Source: Octopus sinensis (taxonomy: Eukaryota). From it: DNA of 64,000 nt. Positions 3,307 to 57,557 of this stretch are shown piece by piece. Each line of letters starts with the position of its first letter. Within the stretch, counting starts at the first letter, position 1. The position numbers and the translations under genes were made by a program. The DNA lies in contig NC_043013.1 of assembly GCF_006345805.1 (NCBI RefSeq), positions 8,370,001-8,434,000 on the forward strand. The letters run 5' to 3'. Under the pieces are notes generated by a model. That model ran no database searches. It saw only the letters and a list, made by a program, of their open reading frames with translations, and was not told the DNA's origin.

Positions 3307-3309
<3 letters not shown>

Positions 3310-3602
3310 AACAATTGCAGCATGGAAGGTGTTTATAAGCCATTTAAGAAACACACAAAAACCGTTAGATTCACTTCAACATTTAAATTTAATTTGTCAA
3401 AGTATTTTCGCCGCTTTGAGACCGCGGCCTGTTCACTGATAAAATTCTGTGCTGCATCACAGAATTTTATCAGTGAACAGGTCATGGTCTCAAAGCGACG
3501 AAAATATTTTGACAAATTAAATTTAAATGTTGAAGTGAATCTAATGGTTTTTGTGTGTTTCTTAAATGGCTTATAAACACCTTCCACGCTGCAATTGTTT
3601 TC
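3307..3602. mobile_element. Near-perfect ~295-bp foldback of Penelope-pLTR-like arms
   Basis: Arms of ~145 bp differing only by transitions, with a short loop near 3452-3457. The left end abuts (TA)n. Confidence 0.85.
3463..3518 (+). ncRNA. Minimal type I hammerhead ribozyme motif, G3-C8 core variant
   Basis: UUUAUCA-GUGAACA-G-GUCAU...GCGAC-GAAA-AUAU-UU-UGACAAA. Mirror copy on the minus strand at 3391-3446. Confidence 0.65.
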
Positions 3603-16631: not shown

Positions 16632-17273
16632 CATTATTTACATTATGTACATTTGACGGATATTTGTCCTTGTCTTTTTTGTTGTTAACACAACGTTTCA
16701 GCTGATATATTCTCCAGCCTTTTTCAGGTGTCCTGGGGGAAATTTCGAACCTGGGTTCTCATTCCTAAGGTATTTTTCGATAAGGGTAGAGGAACATTGC
16801 AAAGCTGTGACACAAGGAGATATTGATGAATTGGGTATAGCTGATCATGTATGGAAAAATGGAGACCACCTCCCCCTGTGGGATGAAGTTAAAATAATAG
16901 ACAGAGAACACTACTGGAAAATGCGAAAACTAAAAGAAGCAGCACATATGCTAGGACATAATAACCTCCTAAGCAAACCTGGTGCAGATATGAGTAGTGC
17001 AGATGCTAAGGAAGGGTAGGAAAATATTATAAGCCCTACAATTCACTCCATAATTGTCCACGGGCATGTGGCTTAGTGGTTAAGAGCATGGGATACTAAC
17101 CCCCAGATTCCAAGTTCAATTTCAGGCAGTGACCTAAATAATTAGAATAATAATAATAATATCGAAAAATACCTTAGATTGAGAACCCAGGTTAGAAATA
17201 TCCCCAGGACACCTGGAGAGTATATCAGCCGAAATGTTGTGTTAACAAATATCCATCAAATGTAAATAATGTA
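16632..17273 (+). mobile_element. Truncated Penelope-like element: inverted pLTR, GIY-YIG fragment, tRNA-like segment, pLTR
   Basis: Inverted arms 16632-16781 and 17161-17273 enclose RVEEH...GIADHVW...WDEVKIIDREHYWKMRKLKEAAHM. Confidence 0.8.
16688..16731 (-). ncRNA. Degenerate minimal hammerhead motif
   Basis: ACAC-CUGAAAA-A-GGCUG...CAGCU-GAAA-CG-UU-GUGU. G8 has mutated to A. Confidence 0.65.
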
Positions 17274-17314
17274 CATTATTCAAATATTTGAGTGTAATGC
17301 TTAAATGAAAACAG

Positions 17315-21182: not shown

Positions 21183-21537
21183 CCCATTTGATTCCAGCCT
21201 GTCTGAGACCTACTCTCCATTCTTTGATACAAATTCTCCGTTTTAAAGTGAACTAGATAAAAACCTTCTATCCAAATTTCTCATTAATTTATTAATTTAT
21301 GCTCCAAGTACCACCTTTATCATTTTGTTACAACATTTTTGCTGTATTTCAGGTAATTTAAAAAATATTTAGTAAATTTAGAATTTAGTAAATTAACTTT
21401 GTCGTTACTAAGCTGGCATTTAGAACATTCATTAACATGAAACTGTGATTGAAGGTTTTAATTTTGATCACTTAAAAACCTTAAGTTTGTATTTTAGAAC
21501 CAGAGATGGTGCCAGATGGTTGGCATCAAACAGTTAA
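21180..21537. mobile_element. Diverged piggyBac-type MITE relative
   Basis: taacccatttgattcca.../...tggcatcaaacagttaa ends, with internal similarity to 52520-52739. A related partial copy starts at ~22003. Confidence 0.5.
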
Positions 21538-22890
21538 TAACGACAAAGTTTTTGATTAGCATCAATTATTTTCAAACTTAATTGAAAAACAAGACAGTAT
21601 GTTTCAACATGTCGAGGCACGTGGTTTAGTGGTTGGGGTGTCAGCATCATGATCGTAAGATTGTGGTTTCGATTCCTGGACTGGCGATGCATTGTGTTCT
21701 TGAGCAAGCACTTCATTTCATGTTGCTCCAGTTCGCTCAGCTGGCAAAAATGAGTAACGCAGCGATGGACTGGTTTCCCATCCAGCTGCAGAACACATAT
21801 GCCATAGAAACCGGGAAACCGGGCCCATGAGCCTGGTTAGGCTTTAAAACGGTGCATTTATTTATTTATTATGTTTCAACAGAAATATGGTACTGAAAGG
21901 ATTAATATTATTAAGTATGGAAAAAGATGATGGTGGTGGGAGTGGGGGTGGGGTAAGGATAGAAACTGAACTTAGATATCTTGTGCTATTTAACTCAATC
22001 TCTTAACCCTATTGATTCCAACCTGCCCAAGACAATCTGCCCAAGACAGCAGCAAGTCGGGGACCCAGGAAAGATAGTTATACTCTTCCATAGAAAAGTC
22101 CTGCTTCTTTGATAACAACTCCCTGTTTTAAAGTGATTTAAATAAAAAAAAACTCCAATCAAAATTCCATGTTAATTATGTTCCAAACACCAGCTTAAAA
22201 GTGACATGGTTATTTTTAATAAATTCTTCATTATTTTCCAAAATTGATTATGGTAAAAAATGGGTGAAAGTTCCAAACTGGAAAAAAAAAATAAATAAAT
22301 AAATATTGCCTTGGGTTTAACTTTGATTTCCATCACTCAAATGTCATCAAAATAAACAGCAATGATGTAATAATTGTAGTAGCAGCAGTAGTGGTGGTAG
22401 TAGTAGTAATAGTAGTAGTAGTAGCAGCAGTAGTGGTGGTGGTGGTGGTAGTGGTGGTGTGGAGGTTGGGGCTTCAACAGCAAGGATGGCTCTTTCATTC
22501 CAATCAACTATATACCTTCTTTACACACTTCCCTGGCCTTGTGCCATTCCAGGAAATCAATACGTCTAAGAATATTGGTTTGGAATTAGGTTTAGAGCAA
22601 CTAATGTAAATAAATAAATAAAAAAAATGTTTTATTTTTCACTTATTAACCAATTCAAAATATATACAAATACTTACATATACACACACTTATGAAAATA
22701 CATACTTATACACACAGCTGATATATTATAAAGAATTATATAATTACATATACGTACATATATATATATGTGTGTATATGTTTATAAGTGTGCATATATA
22801 TATATTTGTGTGTGTATACATACATATATATCTAGGTATATACACACACACATGTACATGCATTTTATATATACATACATATATATATAC

Positions 22891-24972: not shown

Positions 24973-27915
24973 TCACCACCTCGTCCCAGGTTTTCCTGGG
25001 TCTGCCTCCTCTCCACAGTTTCCCTCAACCGCTAGGGTGTGGCACTTTTTCACACAACTATCTTCATCCATTCTCGCCACATGACCATACCAGCGCAAAC
25101 GTCTCTCTTGCACACCACAACTGATGCTTCTTAGGTCCAGCTTTTCTCTCAAGGTACTTACACTCTGCCGATGTGAGAGTACCGGCATTACACATCCATC
25201 GGAGCATACTGGCTTCATTTCTAGCGAGCTTACGCATATCCTCACAGCAGTCACGGCCCATGTTTCACTGCCATGTAGCATGGCTGTTCGTACACACGCA
25301 TCATACAGTCTGCCTTTCACACTCTGTGCGAGAGGCCTTTTGTCACCAGCAGAGGTAAGAGCTCTCTGAACTTTGCCCAAGCTATTCTTACTCTAGCAGT
25401 TACACTTTCAGCACACCCCCGCCCCGCGCTGCTGACTTGGTCACCTAGGTAACGGAAACTATCAACTATTTCTAGTTTTTCTCCCTGGAAAGTGACGGAA
25501 GTTGGTCTCAGAGCATTTTCAGTGTTTATTGTTCCTGAGCATCTGCCACATACAAAAACCATCTTCCTAGTTAGCCTTCCTTTGACATTGCTGCATCTCT
25601 TATGTGTCCATAGCTTACACTTGGTGCATCTTATAGAGTTTCTACCTACACCTTTTCTACAGATCGAGCAGGGCCATCTACCTGAAGGTGTTTGTGATTT
25701 GTCTACCTTCCTACTGATTACGACTTTGGTTTTAGCTAGATTGACTCTGAGGCCCTTCGATTCTAATCCTTGTTTCCACACCTGAAACTTCTCCTCCAGT
25801 TCTGATAGCGACTCAGCAATTAGAGCAAGGTCATCAGCATAGAGGAGCTCCCAAGGGCATCCTGTCTTGAATTCCTCCGTTATTGCCTGGAGGACTATGA
25901 TAAATAGGAGGGGGCTGAGTACTGAGCCTTGGTGGACTCCTACCTCTACCCGGAATTCTTCACTGTACACATTTCCAACCCTCACCCTACTAGCGGCGTC
26001 CCTGTACATGGCCCGCACAGCTCTCACTAACCATTCATCTATCCTAGTTTCCTCATTGCCCACCAGATAAGGGATCGGGGGACCCTGTCGAAGGCTTTCT
26101 CCATGTCAACAAAAGCCAGGTACAGGGGCTTATCTTTGGCTAGGTATTTCTCCTGCAGCTGCCTTACCAGGAATATAGCATCAGTAGTACTTTTCCCTGG
26201 CACAAACCCAAACTGCATCTCATCTAAACTAACTCTCTCTCTAATTAGTTGGGCTATGACCCTCTCCGTAACCTTCATCACCTGGTCCAACAGCTTGATA
26301 CCTCTGTAGTTATTTGTATCTAGGGCATCACCTTTACCTTTGTAGCAGTTGACTATTATACTGCTACACCAGTCATTGGTATGACCCCTTTGTGTATCAC
26401 CTGATTAACTATACGGGTGACTAGGCTATAGCCGACACTACCAGACATTTTGAGCATCTCTGCAGTGATTCCTGATGGGCCTGGGGCTTTTCCTGTCTTC
26501 ATGCTTCTAATTGCCTTAGCTACCACGGAACTATCAACTCGGATAGCTGGTCCCTCTGTTGGGTCAACATTCGGCAGACTCTCTTTATCCCATTCATTTT
26601 CTTCATTCAGCAACCTTTCATAGTGGCATCTCCAAACCTCTCTCTTTGCATCCTCATTTAGCGCAAGTGAACCATCTTCCATGCGAACACACTTCTCTCC
26701 TACCACATCACGATTCTCTCTCACACACTGTCTTGCAACACGAAACACCTCCAGTCTTTGGTCCTCACGGCGCAGAACATTGGCAAATTTTTTCTTATCT
26801 GCTTCCCCTCTGGCTAAATAAACCTGTCTCCTAGCTTCTCTTTTGGCAGTCTGATACAATCCCCTGCTACCCCCATTTTTCCAGACCTTCCAAGCCTGTC
26901 TCTTTTCTCTAATAGCCCTGTCTACATATTTTCTACCACCACGTTATTCTAGGTCGAGAGGGGACTTTGCACCAGCCACAGATCTAGTCAGTGGCTCTCA
27001 GCAGGTTGTCCCTTAGAAACGTCCAGCTGTCTTCTACCCCCTGTGATGCTCTATCCCCTTCTACTTCGTCAGAGGCTTCAAGTAATATGTCCCTAAATCT
27101 CTGTCCATTTGCAGGATCTTTAAGCTTCCAGATCCTTCTTCTCCATATTTGTCGTCTTCTGGTTGTCCTCCTAGTCCTGATCCTAAAGTCACTAACTACC
27201 AGTCTATGTTGTGGGGTACATTCTTCACCTGGGAAGGTTTTGGCATTTATAAGCAGCCATCTCTCCCTTTGCCTTGTAAGGATGTAGTCAATTTGGCTGG
27301 TATGTTGGCCCGATTGGTAAGTGACTAGGTGGCTGGTAGGTTTCCTGAAGTTAGTGTTGCAAATCATAAGATTATTTGCATCGCAGAACTCCAGCAGCCT
27401 GGTTCCCTCCTCGTTGCGGGAGCCATAGCCATAGCCTCCATGTACGCCATGGAAGCCCCCAGCATGTCGTCCAACGTGACCATTGAAGTCACCAGCCACA
27501 AAGATAAGGTCTCTGTCGTTCGTCAACGAGGTAGTCTGCAGTAGAGTGTCATAGAATCGGTCTTTCTGTCCATCGGGTAGCCCCGACTGAGGAGCATAGG
27601 CTGATATAATGGTTGCTAAACTGTGATGAAGCACTAATCTAATCTTAAGTATTCTGTCACATACTCTGATTACCTCAATTACTTTATCTACCGATTTCTC
27701 AGCGATAAGTATACCTACGCCACCAACCCCGTCAGTGTTCCCTGCCCAGAAAATCTTGTACCTGCGTTCCTTGCCTGTGAGGAACCTAGCTGATCCTCCT
27801 CTCCACCTTATTTCTTGCATGCAACATATATCCACACATCTCCGTTCAAGCATCTCGACTATCTCACCAGACCTACCTTTCAGAGTGCCAACGTTGAGGG
27901 TGCCAACCCTGAGGG
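24973..27915 (-). pseudogene. RTE ORF (APE endonuclease, RT, PHD-like finger) broken by frameshifts
   Basis: VGTLNVGTL, DICCMQEIRW, AGDFNGHVG, QIDYIL, FVDMEKAFDRV, GVHQGSVLSPLLF, YADD, RRLRWYGHVARM. Confidence 0.92.
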
Positions 27916-28246
27916 TGTGGAGGCATGGGCTCTAGAGACCCTGGGACGGTGGACAGTAGCTTCGTGTACCTGAAAAGAAAGCTCGCATTTGGCAGAATTC
28001 ATGTGCAAGAAATGAAGTAGTAAGTAGCCTTCAGTACAACCTGCATAACGCTAGCCTTTCATATTTTGCACTGTATGAACATTACCTTACATAGGTCGAG
28101 ACTAGGGGTAGGGAGGGGTAGGGATGGTGAGAATATTTGCAGTCTTCATGGGAAGCAACCCCGGAATGGCAGAGAATAGGAACTTCCGGCATGCGTGGTG
28201 GAGGTGGGAGGGCGGGTGCACCGTGTTGGGGGTGGGAGGGCGGGTG

Positions 28247-31968: not shown

Positions 31969-33069
31969 ACTTTCACCCTTACCACCTCTTCCAAAGGAAT
32001 CTATAAACACACATGCAGACATCCATACATACAAACATAAGGCCAATATGCAGACAGACGAAAACAGATCCTGGAGCAAGTTAGGGAGTCACAGGTCATT
32101 GAAAAGGTTGCGAACAGCAATGAAAGAACTTTGAGGGATAAACAAACAACCAAGTGATTGTTTAATCAACATGTTAAACAACTGATCAATTAGTTAGTTG
32201 GCTAGATATTTAAGCAATTAACTAACAATAAAGAAGTGGAATTGATCCTGTGTGAGTGTTATTATTGGTATAATGACCTTCCCAAGACACAACAAAAAAA
32301 AAATGTAAATATAAGAGTACCAAAATGAATGATTAAAGAAAGAAAGAAAGAAAGGAAGAAAGAAAGGAAGGAAGGAAGAGTGAATGAAGAAGCAAGCTTT
32401 TGGTGTTATGAAAGCATCTGACTGAATCAATAATTTATAAAGTGGAAGTTACTAGACAGTTGAGCTATGGAATTGGTGTAATATGGAATGGATTGGAATG
32501 GAATATATTCCAACCAAACAATGGAATAATGTTTTCTCTTTCCCAGCATTAAAGATGCTGGTTTGAAAGTACATTTTTCTCTCTCTCTCTCTCTCTCCCT
32601 CCATCCCTCTCTCTATCTGTCTATCTATCTATCTATCTATCTATCTATTGATCAATCCGTCTATCTTTCTATCTATCTCCCTTTTAGGATACAACAACCT
32701 CCACTTTCTCTCCCTGAAAGCACCTCTGACAGCATGCATCTTTTTCTCTCCCTCCCCCTCTCCCCTCTCCCTCCCTTCCCTCCCTCCCCTCTCTCCCCCT
32801 CCTATCTATCTCTCTGTTCTCCAGTATACATTATTGTGTCACTTCTACAATGCATTTCTCTCTCTCTCTCTCTCCCTCTCTCTCTCTCTCCCTCTCTCTC
32901 TCTCTCTCTCCTAGTGTGCATCTTTTTCTCCTAAATATGCATTGCTCTATCTCTCACTTTCTCTCTTTCTCCAAGTAAGTCCCTCACCCTTTCTACCTCC
33001 CAGTATGCATATAGCTCTCTCTCTATCTCTCTTTCACTCACACACCCACACACACACGCACACGCACAT

Positions 33070-44233: not shown

Positions 44234-44272
44234 TATACATTTTTAATTTTAATCAGCTTACACACATTTCAG

Positions 44273-44492
44273 ATATAAAGGTATTACATAATTCCATGAT
44301 ATATTAATCCTGCATGCTAATCAATCCACATTTGATCAAACTAGGGTTTTACACTGAAGAGGCTTTGAGAAGGATATGGTTGTGTTATTTTTTTTTAATC
44401 TCTATGAAACTCTATAAAACTCTACATGATCAAACGCGGATTGATTTAAATGCAGGATTAATATATCACAAAATTACGTAATATCTTTATAT
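44273..44492. repeat. Imperfect inverted repeat with ~78-bp arms
   Basis: 44273-44351 pairs with 44415-44492. Confidence 0.8.
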
Positions 44493-44864
44493 TTAAAACA
44501 CACATAAGATGAATCAAAATGTATGATTCTCCATTCATCTGTGTTTTCTTTGTATACATACATACATGTGTGTGTGTGTGTGTGTTTGTCCCTTCCACTC
44601 CTTGACAACAGGTGGTTGTTTGCTTATGGCCTCAATACTTAGAGACTCAGCAAAAGAGACCAATAGAATAAGTAATGAGACTTCAAAACTAAGTACAAGG
44701 GCCAATTTGTTTGGCTAAATCTGTTAAGGAAATGCTCCATCATGGCCACAGTCCACTGACTGGAATATGTAAATGGTAAAAGAAATATAGTTACATAGAT
44801 TATTTTGTGTGAGTCTGTGTATTTATATGGTGTATCTTGAATAGTCATTATTTTTTATAAAGTA

Positions 44865-45552: not shown

Positions 45553-46746
45553 TGTATGTATGTATGTATGTATGTATGTATGTATCTGTTATGCTTATAT
45601 ATATGTAAAATGTACATGTATATGTTATTTCCAAGATACATTTCAAGAATGCTCTAGGAAGCATCATCAGTGAAGTCCCTAAGGTCTTAGGGTGTCTTGG
45701 GCCTGTCAGCTGCCAACTACCTTACTCCAATCATATGTATATTTATATATATATATTATATATATATATATAATATATATATATATATATACACACACAT
45801 ATACACACATACATATGTGTATATGCATATACATACATGCATGTGTATGTGTGTATGTACATATACATCCATTTGAATTAAATTAAAATGTTATTTTCAA
45901 ACTTTTTCATTTCAACTAATAATCGGTGAATATTCATTTCACTTTACTCAAAATAACAATTCAGCTTCTCAGTTTTTTTATACATTTATAAAGGAACATC
46001 GTACATACTTATATACTTATATATATTATTGATATTATTATTATTATTATTACTGGAACATTTCTATAAACTTTTGCTTCAACTAATTCATTTACAATTA
46101 ATTTTTTTTCCTCCCGTTTTCGCTTAAAATATTTAACAATCTTAACAATATTCTAGCCTAAAAGCTCAGACATTATCTGTTTAAAGCTTCTGCTCTCATC
46201 AACTTCAAACATAAAATTTTTACAGAGGCTTTTGTGTGTCTGTATAAATAAAATAACGTTGGTGCAGTTTTTATGGTTGGGGTATTCAGCTTCACTGACA
46301 GCTAAATTTATTAACATTTTAAAGCGTTAAATAAGTTTTTGTTTTCCTCTGTGTTTATGTATGTATTTTTTTTGTTGTTATTTTTATGTATTTGTATTTG
46401 TTTATAAGCACAGGTGCAAAAATGTCCGAGTGGTAAAAAGGCTTATTTTACAACAATGAAGTTTTCAGTTCAGTCTGACAGCGTGGCTGCTTGGGGCAAA
46501 CTTATAACCCTGGGCTGACCATTGCCTTGTGAGTGAATTTCATGAATAGAGATTGTTTGGAAGCCTGTCATGTATATAAATATATATATAGTACACACAT
46601 ACACAGACACACACACACACACACACACACACACATCATATACATCAATGATGTTCTTCTTTTGTGTTTTTTCATGGTTTCTTTTGATTCTCTGTTTGTG
46701 TTTAGTGATTATCCAGTATTTGGGGATGTCAGAAGCATTGATATGT

Positions 46747-47076
46747 AAATGTTGAACAATGAGAATGAGTGCTCAATACCGCATTGGTGGATAAAGTTTC
46801 TTTATTTGTGTATTAAGGCAACCATAGGTTTCTTGTTAAGAAAATATCTTAACAATTTTTCAAGCCATTTATATGGAGATGCACACCATTCCTCCATGTG
46901 ATTAACTTGAAAAATAATGGAGAAAAACACCATTCCTCTCTGTGATTGGCTTGAAAAATTATTAAGATAGTAACATAGTTTTCTTAACATGAAACCAATG
47001 GTAGCCTTAATACACAAGTAAAGAAATTTTATCCACCAATGCAGTGTTGAGCACTCATTCCCAGTGCTCAACATTT
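46747..47076. mobile_element. Foldback element with paired hammerhead motifs, U3-A8 core variant
   Basis: Arms of ~125 bp. Ribozyme motifs at 46817-46866 (-) and 46948-47006 (+). Confidence 0.8.
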
Positions 47077-47984
47077 AGTTGGTTTGTTTACATCTCTGAG
47101 AACAAACCGTTCTACCAAAGAGGCTTATGGAATAAGTACCAGACTTAGAAGTATGTACTGGGGTTGGACTTTTGGATTAAACCCTTCGATGCAGTGCCAC
47201 AGCTTGGCCATAGTCTAATGAGTAAAACAAGTAAAGATAAAAGAACAGGTGTGTTTGTGAGTGAAAGAGAGTGAGAGGTGTGATGTATTATTTATAGTCA
47301 CACTACACCTCAGATGTATGTGTGTGTGCATATCAGGCCAGTTCTAGAGAGGCAAACTCATTCGAATTTATTACACTCGAAATTTGGGACTTTACAAAAC
47401 AAGCCCCCACTTGCAACACACGAATATGAATGCTGTATCTGCCATAAAAAATAAAAATGAAATGCAAGTCTTTGAAAGCCATCGTAGGGCTCGTAATCAC
47501 TGATAAATATGAATGAATGAACAACCCAGAAATGAGATGTTTTGTCAGCATTGGATTCTTGAACTGGTCAATGTGAAATACCTTGTTTCACATTGCTCCA
47601 GTCCACCTAGCTAGCGAAAATGAATAATCCTGCAATGGACCAGTGTCCTGTCCAGGTGAGGAATTTATGCACTATGGAAACCAGCCCTTATGAGTTGATA
47701 TGACTTGAGAAGGTAACTTTTGTGGAGGTGTGTGGCTTAGTGGTTAGGGTATTGGACTCATGATCATAAGATTGTGGTTTCGATTCCTGGACCGGGTGAC
47801 TTGTTGCTTTCTTGAGCAAAACACATTTCACATTGCTCCAGTCCACTCAGCTGGCAAAAATGAGTAATCCTGTGGCAGACCGATGTCTTGTCCAGGTGGG
47901 AAATTTATACAACATGTAAACCAGGAAACTGACCCTTGTGAGTTGGCATAACTTGAGAAGGTAACTAAAATTTTCATGGTCCAT

Positions 47985-54863: not shown

Positions 54864-55132
54864 ATTACAGCCGATCTTACCAATCAGTTTCATACAGGGG
54901 TTCAACGGAGTGTTAGGTAACAGTCTGATTATGTAACCCTGTGCTCATCAGAGGTAGCCATTTTGAAATGAAATATAGAGACTGCTCTCTATTGTTGGAG
55001 ATGAATCTCCAACAATAGAGTGCAGTCACTATATTTCATTCCATAACAGCTTCCTCTGATGAGCGCAGGATTTGTTACCTAACACTCCATCAGACCCCCA
55101 ATGTGAAACTAATCGGTAAGATCAGCTGTAAT
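54864..55132. mobile_element. Foldback element with paired canonical-core hammerhead motifs
   Basis: Palindrome centred at ~55003. CUGAUGA...GAAAC...GUA at 55047-55128 (+) and 54868-54959 (-). Confidence 0.8.
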
Positions 55133-56057: not shown

Positions 56058-56369
56058 CTTTATGAATGAGAAAAAGGAAGTAAATAGAAAAATTTGATGT
56101 ACAGACGTCATTTATTCAAAGACATTTGATTTCATGTAGAGAAATTCTTGCCGACAGCTGTTTCCACACCCAATCAATTCAATTACAGAAATAAAATACT
56201 TGAATTCAAATTCCCATATTTGAAACCAGTCTGTTGGGTATTTCTTCAAGGAGAATTTCCAAAAAGGAGTTACATTTCGGCGTGTAGGCTATCCTACGAC
56301 AAACTCAGATGTGTGTGTTTTCTTGAATACAAGCAAGCATTCCTCAGAGAACCATTATTACCATATATG

Positions 56370-56403
<34 letters not shown>

Positions 56404-56589
56404 ATAATAATAATAATATTAGGGAGTATATCCAAACTTACAGGGAAAATTAGATTTAAGATTAAATCAAATTTCACAGTATAAATATTATATATTACAT
56501 TATTAATATATTTATTTTTTGTTTTTTATGTTTTGGTTTATATCTATCACTGTTTGAGTTGCCTAATAGTGGTTTTATCTCTAATTTAA

Positions 56590-56632
<43 letters not shown>

Positions 56633-56943
56633 ACATTCAATATATTTATGCTTGTGCAAATATGATACATAATAGTTCATTGATGGTGGTATGGTAGTTA
56701 AGAAGATACAGGTTAGCTGTGGAAATGTAACTTCCTTTTGGAAATTCTTTCCGAAGAAATATCCAATTGACTGGTTTCAAATTTGGGAATTTGAATTAAA
56801 GTATTTTATTTCTGTAATTGAATTGATTGGGTGTGGAAACAGCTGTAGAGAGGAATTTCTCTACATGGATTTGAAAGTCTTTGAATAAATAACGTCAATA
56901 CATCAATTTTTTTCTATTTTCTTCTTTTCCTCATTCATAAAGT
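56057..56943. mobile_element. Inverted pLTR-like arms (~220 bp) with hammerhead motifs around a ~440-bp spacer
   Basis: 56057-56278 pairs with 56722-56943. Motifs at 56141-56259 (-) and 56741-56859 (+). Confidence 0.78.
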
Positions 56944-57429: not shown

Positions 57430-57557
57430 GTAAGTTGATGTAGTAGTTGTTGATGATGATGATGATGATGTTAAATGCTTCACTGCTGATTATGATAAAT
57501 CTTCAATTTTATATTCTTTAATGTTACCATCTTAAATATTTTTTTGTTACTTACCAG

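Follow-up and report, generated by a model that had tools for sequence, protein, structure and literature searches.

An abundant octopus fold-back family with U3-A8 hammerhead arms, a probable truncated Penelope-like insertion

Results

A fold-back insertion within a host repeat

The window analyzed here, 64,000 nucleotides of Octopus sinensis contig NC_043013.1, contains a fold-back insertion of 332 nt (46746-47077), in which self-BLAST delimits two divergent arms around a short centre. The arms are identical at 112 of 124 aligned bases and differ further by one 9-nt gap, and the whole fold-back is predicted to form a hairpin of -173 kcal/mol on the plus strand and -177 kcal/mol on the minus strand. 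Each arm carries a hammerhead motif; the gap falls in loop II, which is shorter in the minus copy. Because the two motif copies are the arms of one fold-back, they count as one event and cannot alone show covariation. The centre is a 44-nt tandem repeat in two copies (46873-46961, plus strand, by local alignment), and the motif list places a third, partial core at the end of the first copy (46907-46915, plus strand, with U3 at 46907 and A8 at 46912). The right arm ends in a stem-loop of 13 bp (47043-47075, plus strand, -17.8 kcal/mol), the left-arm counterpart of which is degenerate (-4.5). On the left, a one-sided extension of about 110 nt (46636-46745, minus strand), held by few family copies, adjoins the arm. 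The element is thus larger than the 46817-47006 of the original prediction, comprising the fold-back and this extension to approximately 46636. A weak match at 57521-57543 showed no core.

The fold-back interrupts a SINE-like repeat ('family A'), a label based on tRNA-like boxes judged by eye. Against a reference consisting of one 421-nt copy, the 5' half (46423-46590, plus strand) matches reference positions 15-187 at 119 of 165 aligned bases and the 3' half (47080-47242, plus strand) matches positions 243-402 at 109 of 155. Both halves lie on the same strand and are collinear, as expected from the proposal that the element interrupts this repeat, and the fold-back is younger than the repeat that it splits. 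The 55 nt at reference positions 188-242 have no counterpart in either half, and the flanks of the fold-back at the split repeat show no clear target duplication. The host repeat is split at its own microsatellite, the pattern of a microsatellite-biased insertion. A (CA)n tract occupies the left junction (46593-46635) in the orientation opposite to the host's own (TG)n core. Intact host copies carry (TG)n on the plus strand, and the (CA)n at the junction may reflect either an inversion at insertion or a tract that was carried in.

Hammerhead motifs in the two arms

The minus arm contains a minimal type I hammerhead motif at 46817-46866, with U3 at 46863 and A8 at 46858. Helix I is formed by the pairing of 46866-46864 with 46819-46817 (3 bp). 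After A8 come a single unpaired A and helix II, which has 9 bp and a 5-nt loop; these are followed by GAAA, by helix III (3 bp) and by the GUU site. The hammerhead is the predicted minimum-energy fold of this copy (-12.7 kcal/mol, z -2.88, with 2 of 200 shuffled sequences doing as well), and both the letters and this fold agree with the core, helix I and 3-bp helix III that had been claimed for it. Changes private to this copy are located at N17 (46820), in loop III (46826) and at 11.1 (46833).

The motif in the plus arm (46948-47006; U3 at 46951, A8 at 46956) has the same core, a longer loop II (14 nt) and a GUA site ending at 47003, all as originally described, and the predicted plus-strand cut, after A47003, falls where it had been placed. 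Its helix II, however, is broken by an A-C mismatch (46961/46988, the damage being at 46961) and by a U-U at the helix base, and a hammerhead fold is not predicted for this copy alone (z +0.71, with 153 of 200 shuffled sequences doing as well). Helix III and loop 3 are palindromic, with 46994-47002 self-complementary around one central base, and two copies of the motif are predicted to co-fold with their helix III strands exchanged.

The core N3-UGA-N7-N8-A is present in both arms, and at family level in the core-covering contigs, together with GAAA, an NUH site and Watson-Crick pairing of positions 3 and 8. Also present are traits of Penelope-type hammerheads, namely an unpaired base between positions 9 and 10.1, a long helix II (8-9 bp) and a 3-bp helix I. 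The G10.1-C11.1 pair, which hammerheads of this type conserve strongly though not universally, is absent, as had been noticed, and is replaced by U-A in the minus copy and by U-U in the family majority. Because published members also lack this pair (PMC3088659, PMC4209133; here and below, statements from the literature refer to parts of each source), its absence does not bar membership of the hammerhead class.

A motif descriptor, written after the motif had been seen, was applied to 60 block-wise Markov-resampled windows. U3-A8 matches scoring at least 14 occurred in none of the 60, the minus copy scoring 15, and weak matches occurred at 0.37 per resampled window; the descriptor is a rough control only and missed the plus copy and the motifs of the other families in the window. 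Another U3-A8 match, at 32099, scores 10, no better than chance by this measure. Rfam gave no match over the whole window at gathering score, and the 15 matches obtained at E up to 10 for 46700-47120 (421 bases) included no hammerhead model; the highest were long-hairpin microRNA models, far below their thresholds, which reflect only the fold-back. An exact 21-nt pattern was not found in viral contigs, and its two matches in metagenome contigs, both in a bacterial gene without further likeness, are attributed to chance.

The family in public contigs

Four of 24 listed public runs, with four organism labels, gave contigs that match 46640-47140 at 80% likeness: 48 in run X1, 3497 in X2, 2375 in X7 and 1615 in X12. 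Given the thousands of contigs in X2, X7 and X12, the fold-back is a high-copy family common to related species. The summed depth of the arms reaches several thousand times that of the flank in X2, a measure of depth and not of copy number. One X1 contig spans the whole matched stretch with 10 differing letters in 501, and the insertion is therefore present in another sample; the contig says nothing on transcription or cutting, and the RNA nature of X1 is itself a guess.

A C3-G8 family consensus would require three A>G changes (46863, 46912, 46956) and three T>C changes (46858, 46907, 46951). None of these six changes is among the 40 listed of 84 differences. The totals per run leave room for one unlisted A>G in each of X7 and X12 and two in X2, and for unlisted T>C numbering one in X12, two in X2 and four in X7; C3 or G8 could not reach 10% at more than one of the three core copies in X7 and X12. 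Since the totals leave too few unlisted changes, the consensus is not C3-G8 among the core-covering contigs, in which U3-A8 is best read as a family trait and not as decay. The CUGAAGA consensus that had been set beforehand as the outcome contrary to the prediction did not occur among them. Loose ends of 24 contigs in X12 gave a consensus (agreement 0.57) that represents a subfamily which keeps U3-A8, has U at N7, differs in the innermost letter of helix II and apparently lacks the extra unpaired A.

Differences listed within the motif lie in loops, at N17 or at 11.1, or they keep or restore pairs. Across X2, X7 and X12, the minus cleavage site is GUA in 90-95% of depth, position 11.1 is U in 91-93%, and 46961 is G, which restores a G-C pair (46961/46988), in 68-82%. 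On these contig sequences, the family helix II reads as 8 bp over a U-U mismatch, or as A-U with a bulged U, and the window copy has decayed, its 9-bp helix II and GUU site being private mutations. The perfect 9-bp helix II originally described is thus a property of the minus copy but not of the family.

Contigs with the longer loop II match only from approximately 46979, and the first half of the core has about 4% of the summed depth found over helix III. For the commonest subfamily, positions 3 and 8 are therefore visible only indirectly, through contigs joined to the partial core. The joins at 46979 suggest that the longer loop II of this subfamily holds an extra small hairpin. Loose contig ends in X2, X7 and X12 show the family ends passing into (TA)n or (CA)n, and the centres vary among copies.

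The left-arm extension has a depth above that of the single-copy flank and far below that of the arms. Eight of the 12 differences listed for it are synonymous in one minus-strand frame (11 of 3000 random placements were as good), and the frame contains one in-frame stop. It is possibly the decayed start of a parent ORF, as this substitution pattern would suggest. A protein search with one frame (46 aa) returned one candidate and none at E up to 10; for the other (56 aa, with X at the stop) there was no real homologue among 1.84 billion sequences, a word search gave no candidate, and two matches were rejected as tandem-repeat artefacts. These three protein searches of the extension found no reverse transcriptase or endonuclease for the U3-A8 family.

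Other fold-backs and repeats in the window

The fold-back at 16633-17279 has outward-facing, decayed hammerhead arms, one of them C3-A8 (16727, minus strand), and provides a local control with the same arm layout as the U3-A8 fold-back, but from a different family. It includes a 120-aa C-terminal endonuclease-like fragment (16657-17016), for which 83 candidates yielded five homologues at or below E 0.001. These homologues reach E 3e-27, two carry a reverse-transcriptase domain, and the best named one is an Octopus protein. Pfam found nothing on this fragment, the identity of which is given by its homologues; from motifs read by eye, it is presumably of the GIY-YIG/Penelope type.

A near-perfect palindrome at 3307-3602 (94.6% self-match) contains two G3-C8 minimal hammerheads (3436 minus, 3473 plus) with G10.1-C11.1 and the palindromic helix III intact. 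The one published mention of a G3-C8 hammerhead that was found is an engineered one. The engineered swap partly rescues a Penelope hammerhead (PMC11167929). Compared with U3-A8, natural families with G3-C8 may be less fully documented. In the fold-back at 54864-55132, both strands carry C3-G8 cores and the helix II region is unusually long, and an old fold-back at 44267-44498 (68% self-match) has one C3-G8 core (44354, plus strand) with a poor helix III. Three of the four possible Watson-Crick 3-8 pairs therefore do occur in the window, but not in one locus as had been stated, the C3-G8 and G3-C8 insertions being 8 and 43 kb away. Self-BLAST listed no match of the U3-A8 fold-back to either of these insertions.

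Long inverted repeats without a convincing hammerhead core are found at 56058-56942 (222 nt at 87%) and 21380-22227 (104 nt at 75%), and could be DNA-transposon ends. On the minus strand at 24973-27931 is a broken LINE-like element with endonuclease-like and reverse-transcriptase-like ORF pieces, as judged by eye from their translations.

Comparison with published hammerheads

The U3-A8 core is not new: it was already published in 2011 and 2014, and the fold-back is an ordinary new example of it. Natural U3-A8 covariation and a tolerated U10.1-U11.1 mismatch were reported by Perreault 2011 (PMC3088659), in examples that are not tied to Penelope-like elements in the available part of that paper, where co-occurrence of the two in one motif is not stated. 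Cervera and De la Pena 2014 (PMC4209133) described U3-A8 in the Cercyon Penelope-like elements of Schistosoma mansoni, with approximately 1,300 hits, as well as opposite-strand hammerhead pairs 100-700 bp apart in Penelope-like elements.

The closest likeness is to Cercyon. Fig. S3 of that study (PMC4209133) includes an element-linked example with the identical core-plus-bulge UUGAAAAA, its helix I also having 3 bp. In another of its U3-A8 examples, helix II opens with U-A and not G-C. Cercyon hammerheads and the fold-back have in common a long helix II, an unpaired base before helix II, a palindromic helix III and opposite-strand pairs. The fold-back differs in its animal lineage, in its 3-bp helix III with a 3-nt loop, in the U-U that the family has at 10.1-11.1 and in its GUA site, and its membership is proposed from motif and geometry, not from an ORF. 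A Poseidon element of Hydra magnipapillata in the same figure (as read from a machine-extracted row with the GAAA column detached) has U before and after helix II, a 3-nt helix III loop and a site ending in UA, but, unlike the fold-back, it keeps C3-G8 and a 4-bp helix II.

In the PAc Poseidon of Anolis (PMC11167929), the hammerhead lies upstream of a stem-loop that ends genomic copies, and targets are AT-rich, both as in the fold-back; its core is C3-G8, and its ORF starts within helix II, which is not evident in the fold-back. Reverse transcription of the Anolis element started in the downstream stem-loop where genomic copies end, and its hammerhead cut only with its own protein and was dispensable for insertion in vitro (PMC11167929). 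Non-LTR retrozymes (PMC7229834; bioRxiv 10.64898/2026.07.22.740005) are, like the fold-back, short non-coding animal repeats with type I hammerheads, but consist of head-to-tail tandem units, whereas the fold-back pairs minimal motifs in divergent, inverted orientation. No description of a U3-A8 fold-back family was found in the octopus Penelope and hammerhead literature within our scope, outside which most subscription papers fall, and the family may be unrecorded.

Discussion

We consider it highly probable that the fold-back represents an abundant family with U3-A8 arms and is a likely dead, 5'-truncated and inverted Penelope-like insertion. This reading follows from its geometry, from its microsatellite flanks and from the sister fold-back with a Penelope endonuclease fragment. 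According to Craig et al. (PMC8557442), Penelope-like insertions are truncated at the 5' end, favour microsatellites, carry a tail on one side and often have an inverted copy next to them, and here an inverted truncated copy is found beside a putative pseudo-LTR with a one-sided extension. The published tail is 30-40 nt (PMC8557442), and the extension of the fold-back is longer, approximately 110 nt.

We regard as tentative, and less likely than not, the stronger proposal that a doubly non-standard hammerhead (U3-A8 with U10.1-U11.1) is under selection and cuts in a family of thousands of copies across related species. Somewhat unlikely in turn is that the family is a non-cutting relic derived from Penelope, with U3-A8 and U10.1-U11.1 fixed in one master copy and amplified regardless of ribozyme activity. 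Such a relic would be consistent with in vitro results in which hammerhead mutants left insertion by a Penelope-like protein unimpaired (PMC11167929), with the presence of two non-standard features in a motif whose helix I has only 3 bp, and with the poor cutting of minimal motifs, those of metazoans being inactive as monomers and weak as dimers (PMC4209133). However, the differences listed for the family leave the core untouched and helix II intact, one subfamily alters N7 and an inner helix letter yet retains U3-A8, and U3-A8 and U10.1-U11.1 have each been reported as compatible with activity (PMC3088659).

A MITE whose terminal inverted repeats resemble a hammerhead by chance is improbable. 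Inverted arms of approximately 130 nt, TA at both outer ends and a short non-coding centre would suit such an element, but the left arm continues about 110 nt beyond the mirror point into sequence of other copies, the centres differ among copies, 55 nt of the host repeat were lost and not duplicated, and the motif matches the published Penelope consensus except at two positions (PMC4209133). Of what cut-and-paste transposition predicts (symmetric terminal inverted repeats, a target duplication and a uniform interior), none was found, TA at the mirror ends being the only fit.

Less probable still is a double decay of an ordinary C3-G8 family to U3-A8, copied into both arms at insertion: although both arms derive from one template, a single G8-to-A decay exists in the window (16727, minus strand) and the commonest long-loop subfamily is covered only indirectly, C3 or G8 stays below 10% in at least two of the three core copies in X7 and X12 and an independent subfamily consensus carries U3-A8. 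A non-LTR retrozyme was rejected, as head-to-tail units with full hammerheads were not found, the full motifs facing outward on opposite strands and the tandem part being only 44 nt with a partial core.

For the Penelope-like insertion, we propose the following origin. The RNA of the parent element would carry the motif in its pseudo-LTR, where U3-A8 would replace C3-G8 and keep the tertiary 3-8 pair. The predicted cleavage after GUA would be slow and would probably take place in a dimer joined by the self-complementary helix III, or with the protein of the element assisting. The arms may correspond to the end of the pseudo-LTR plus the tail. Reverse transcription may have begun near the terminal stem-loop, which by its likeness to that of the Anolis element may serve as the start, and would have been primed at the microsatellite of the host repeat, a second, inverted and truncated copy then being placed beside the first. 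The copy in the window is itself likely inactive as a ribozyme, because any read-through RNA would contain both the motif and its antisense and is predicted to form a single long hairpin in which the ribozyme is buried.

The published U3-A8 hammerheads of Penelope-like elements are extended by one further lineage of animals and by an abundant family, and no rule of hammerhead chemistry is changed. Because standard covariance models missed the motif, such families are under-counted. Families with C3-G8, U3-A8 and G3-C8 in a single genome are matched natural variants with which to ask why these elements keep a ribozyme. If the doubly non-standard hammerhead truly cuts, these families would form a natural series for testing both the freedom of the 3-8 pair and the role of the ribozyme in Penelope-like elements.
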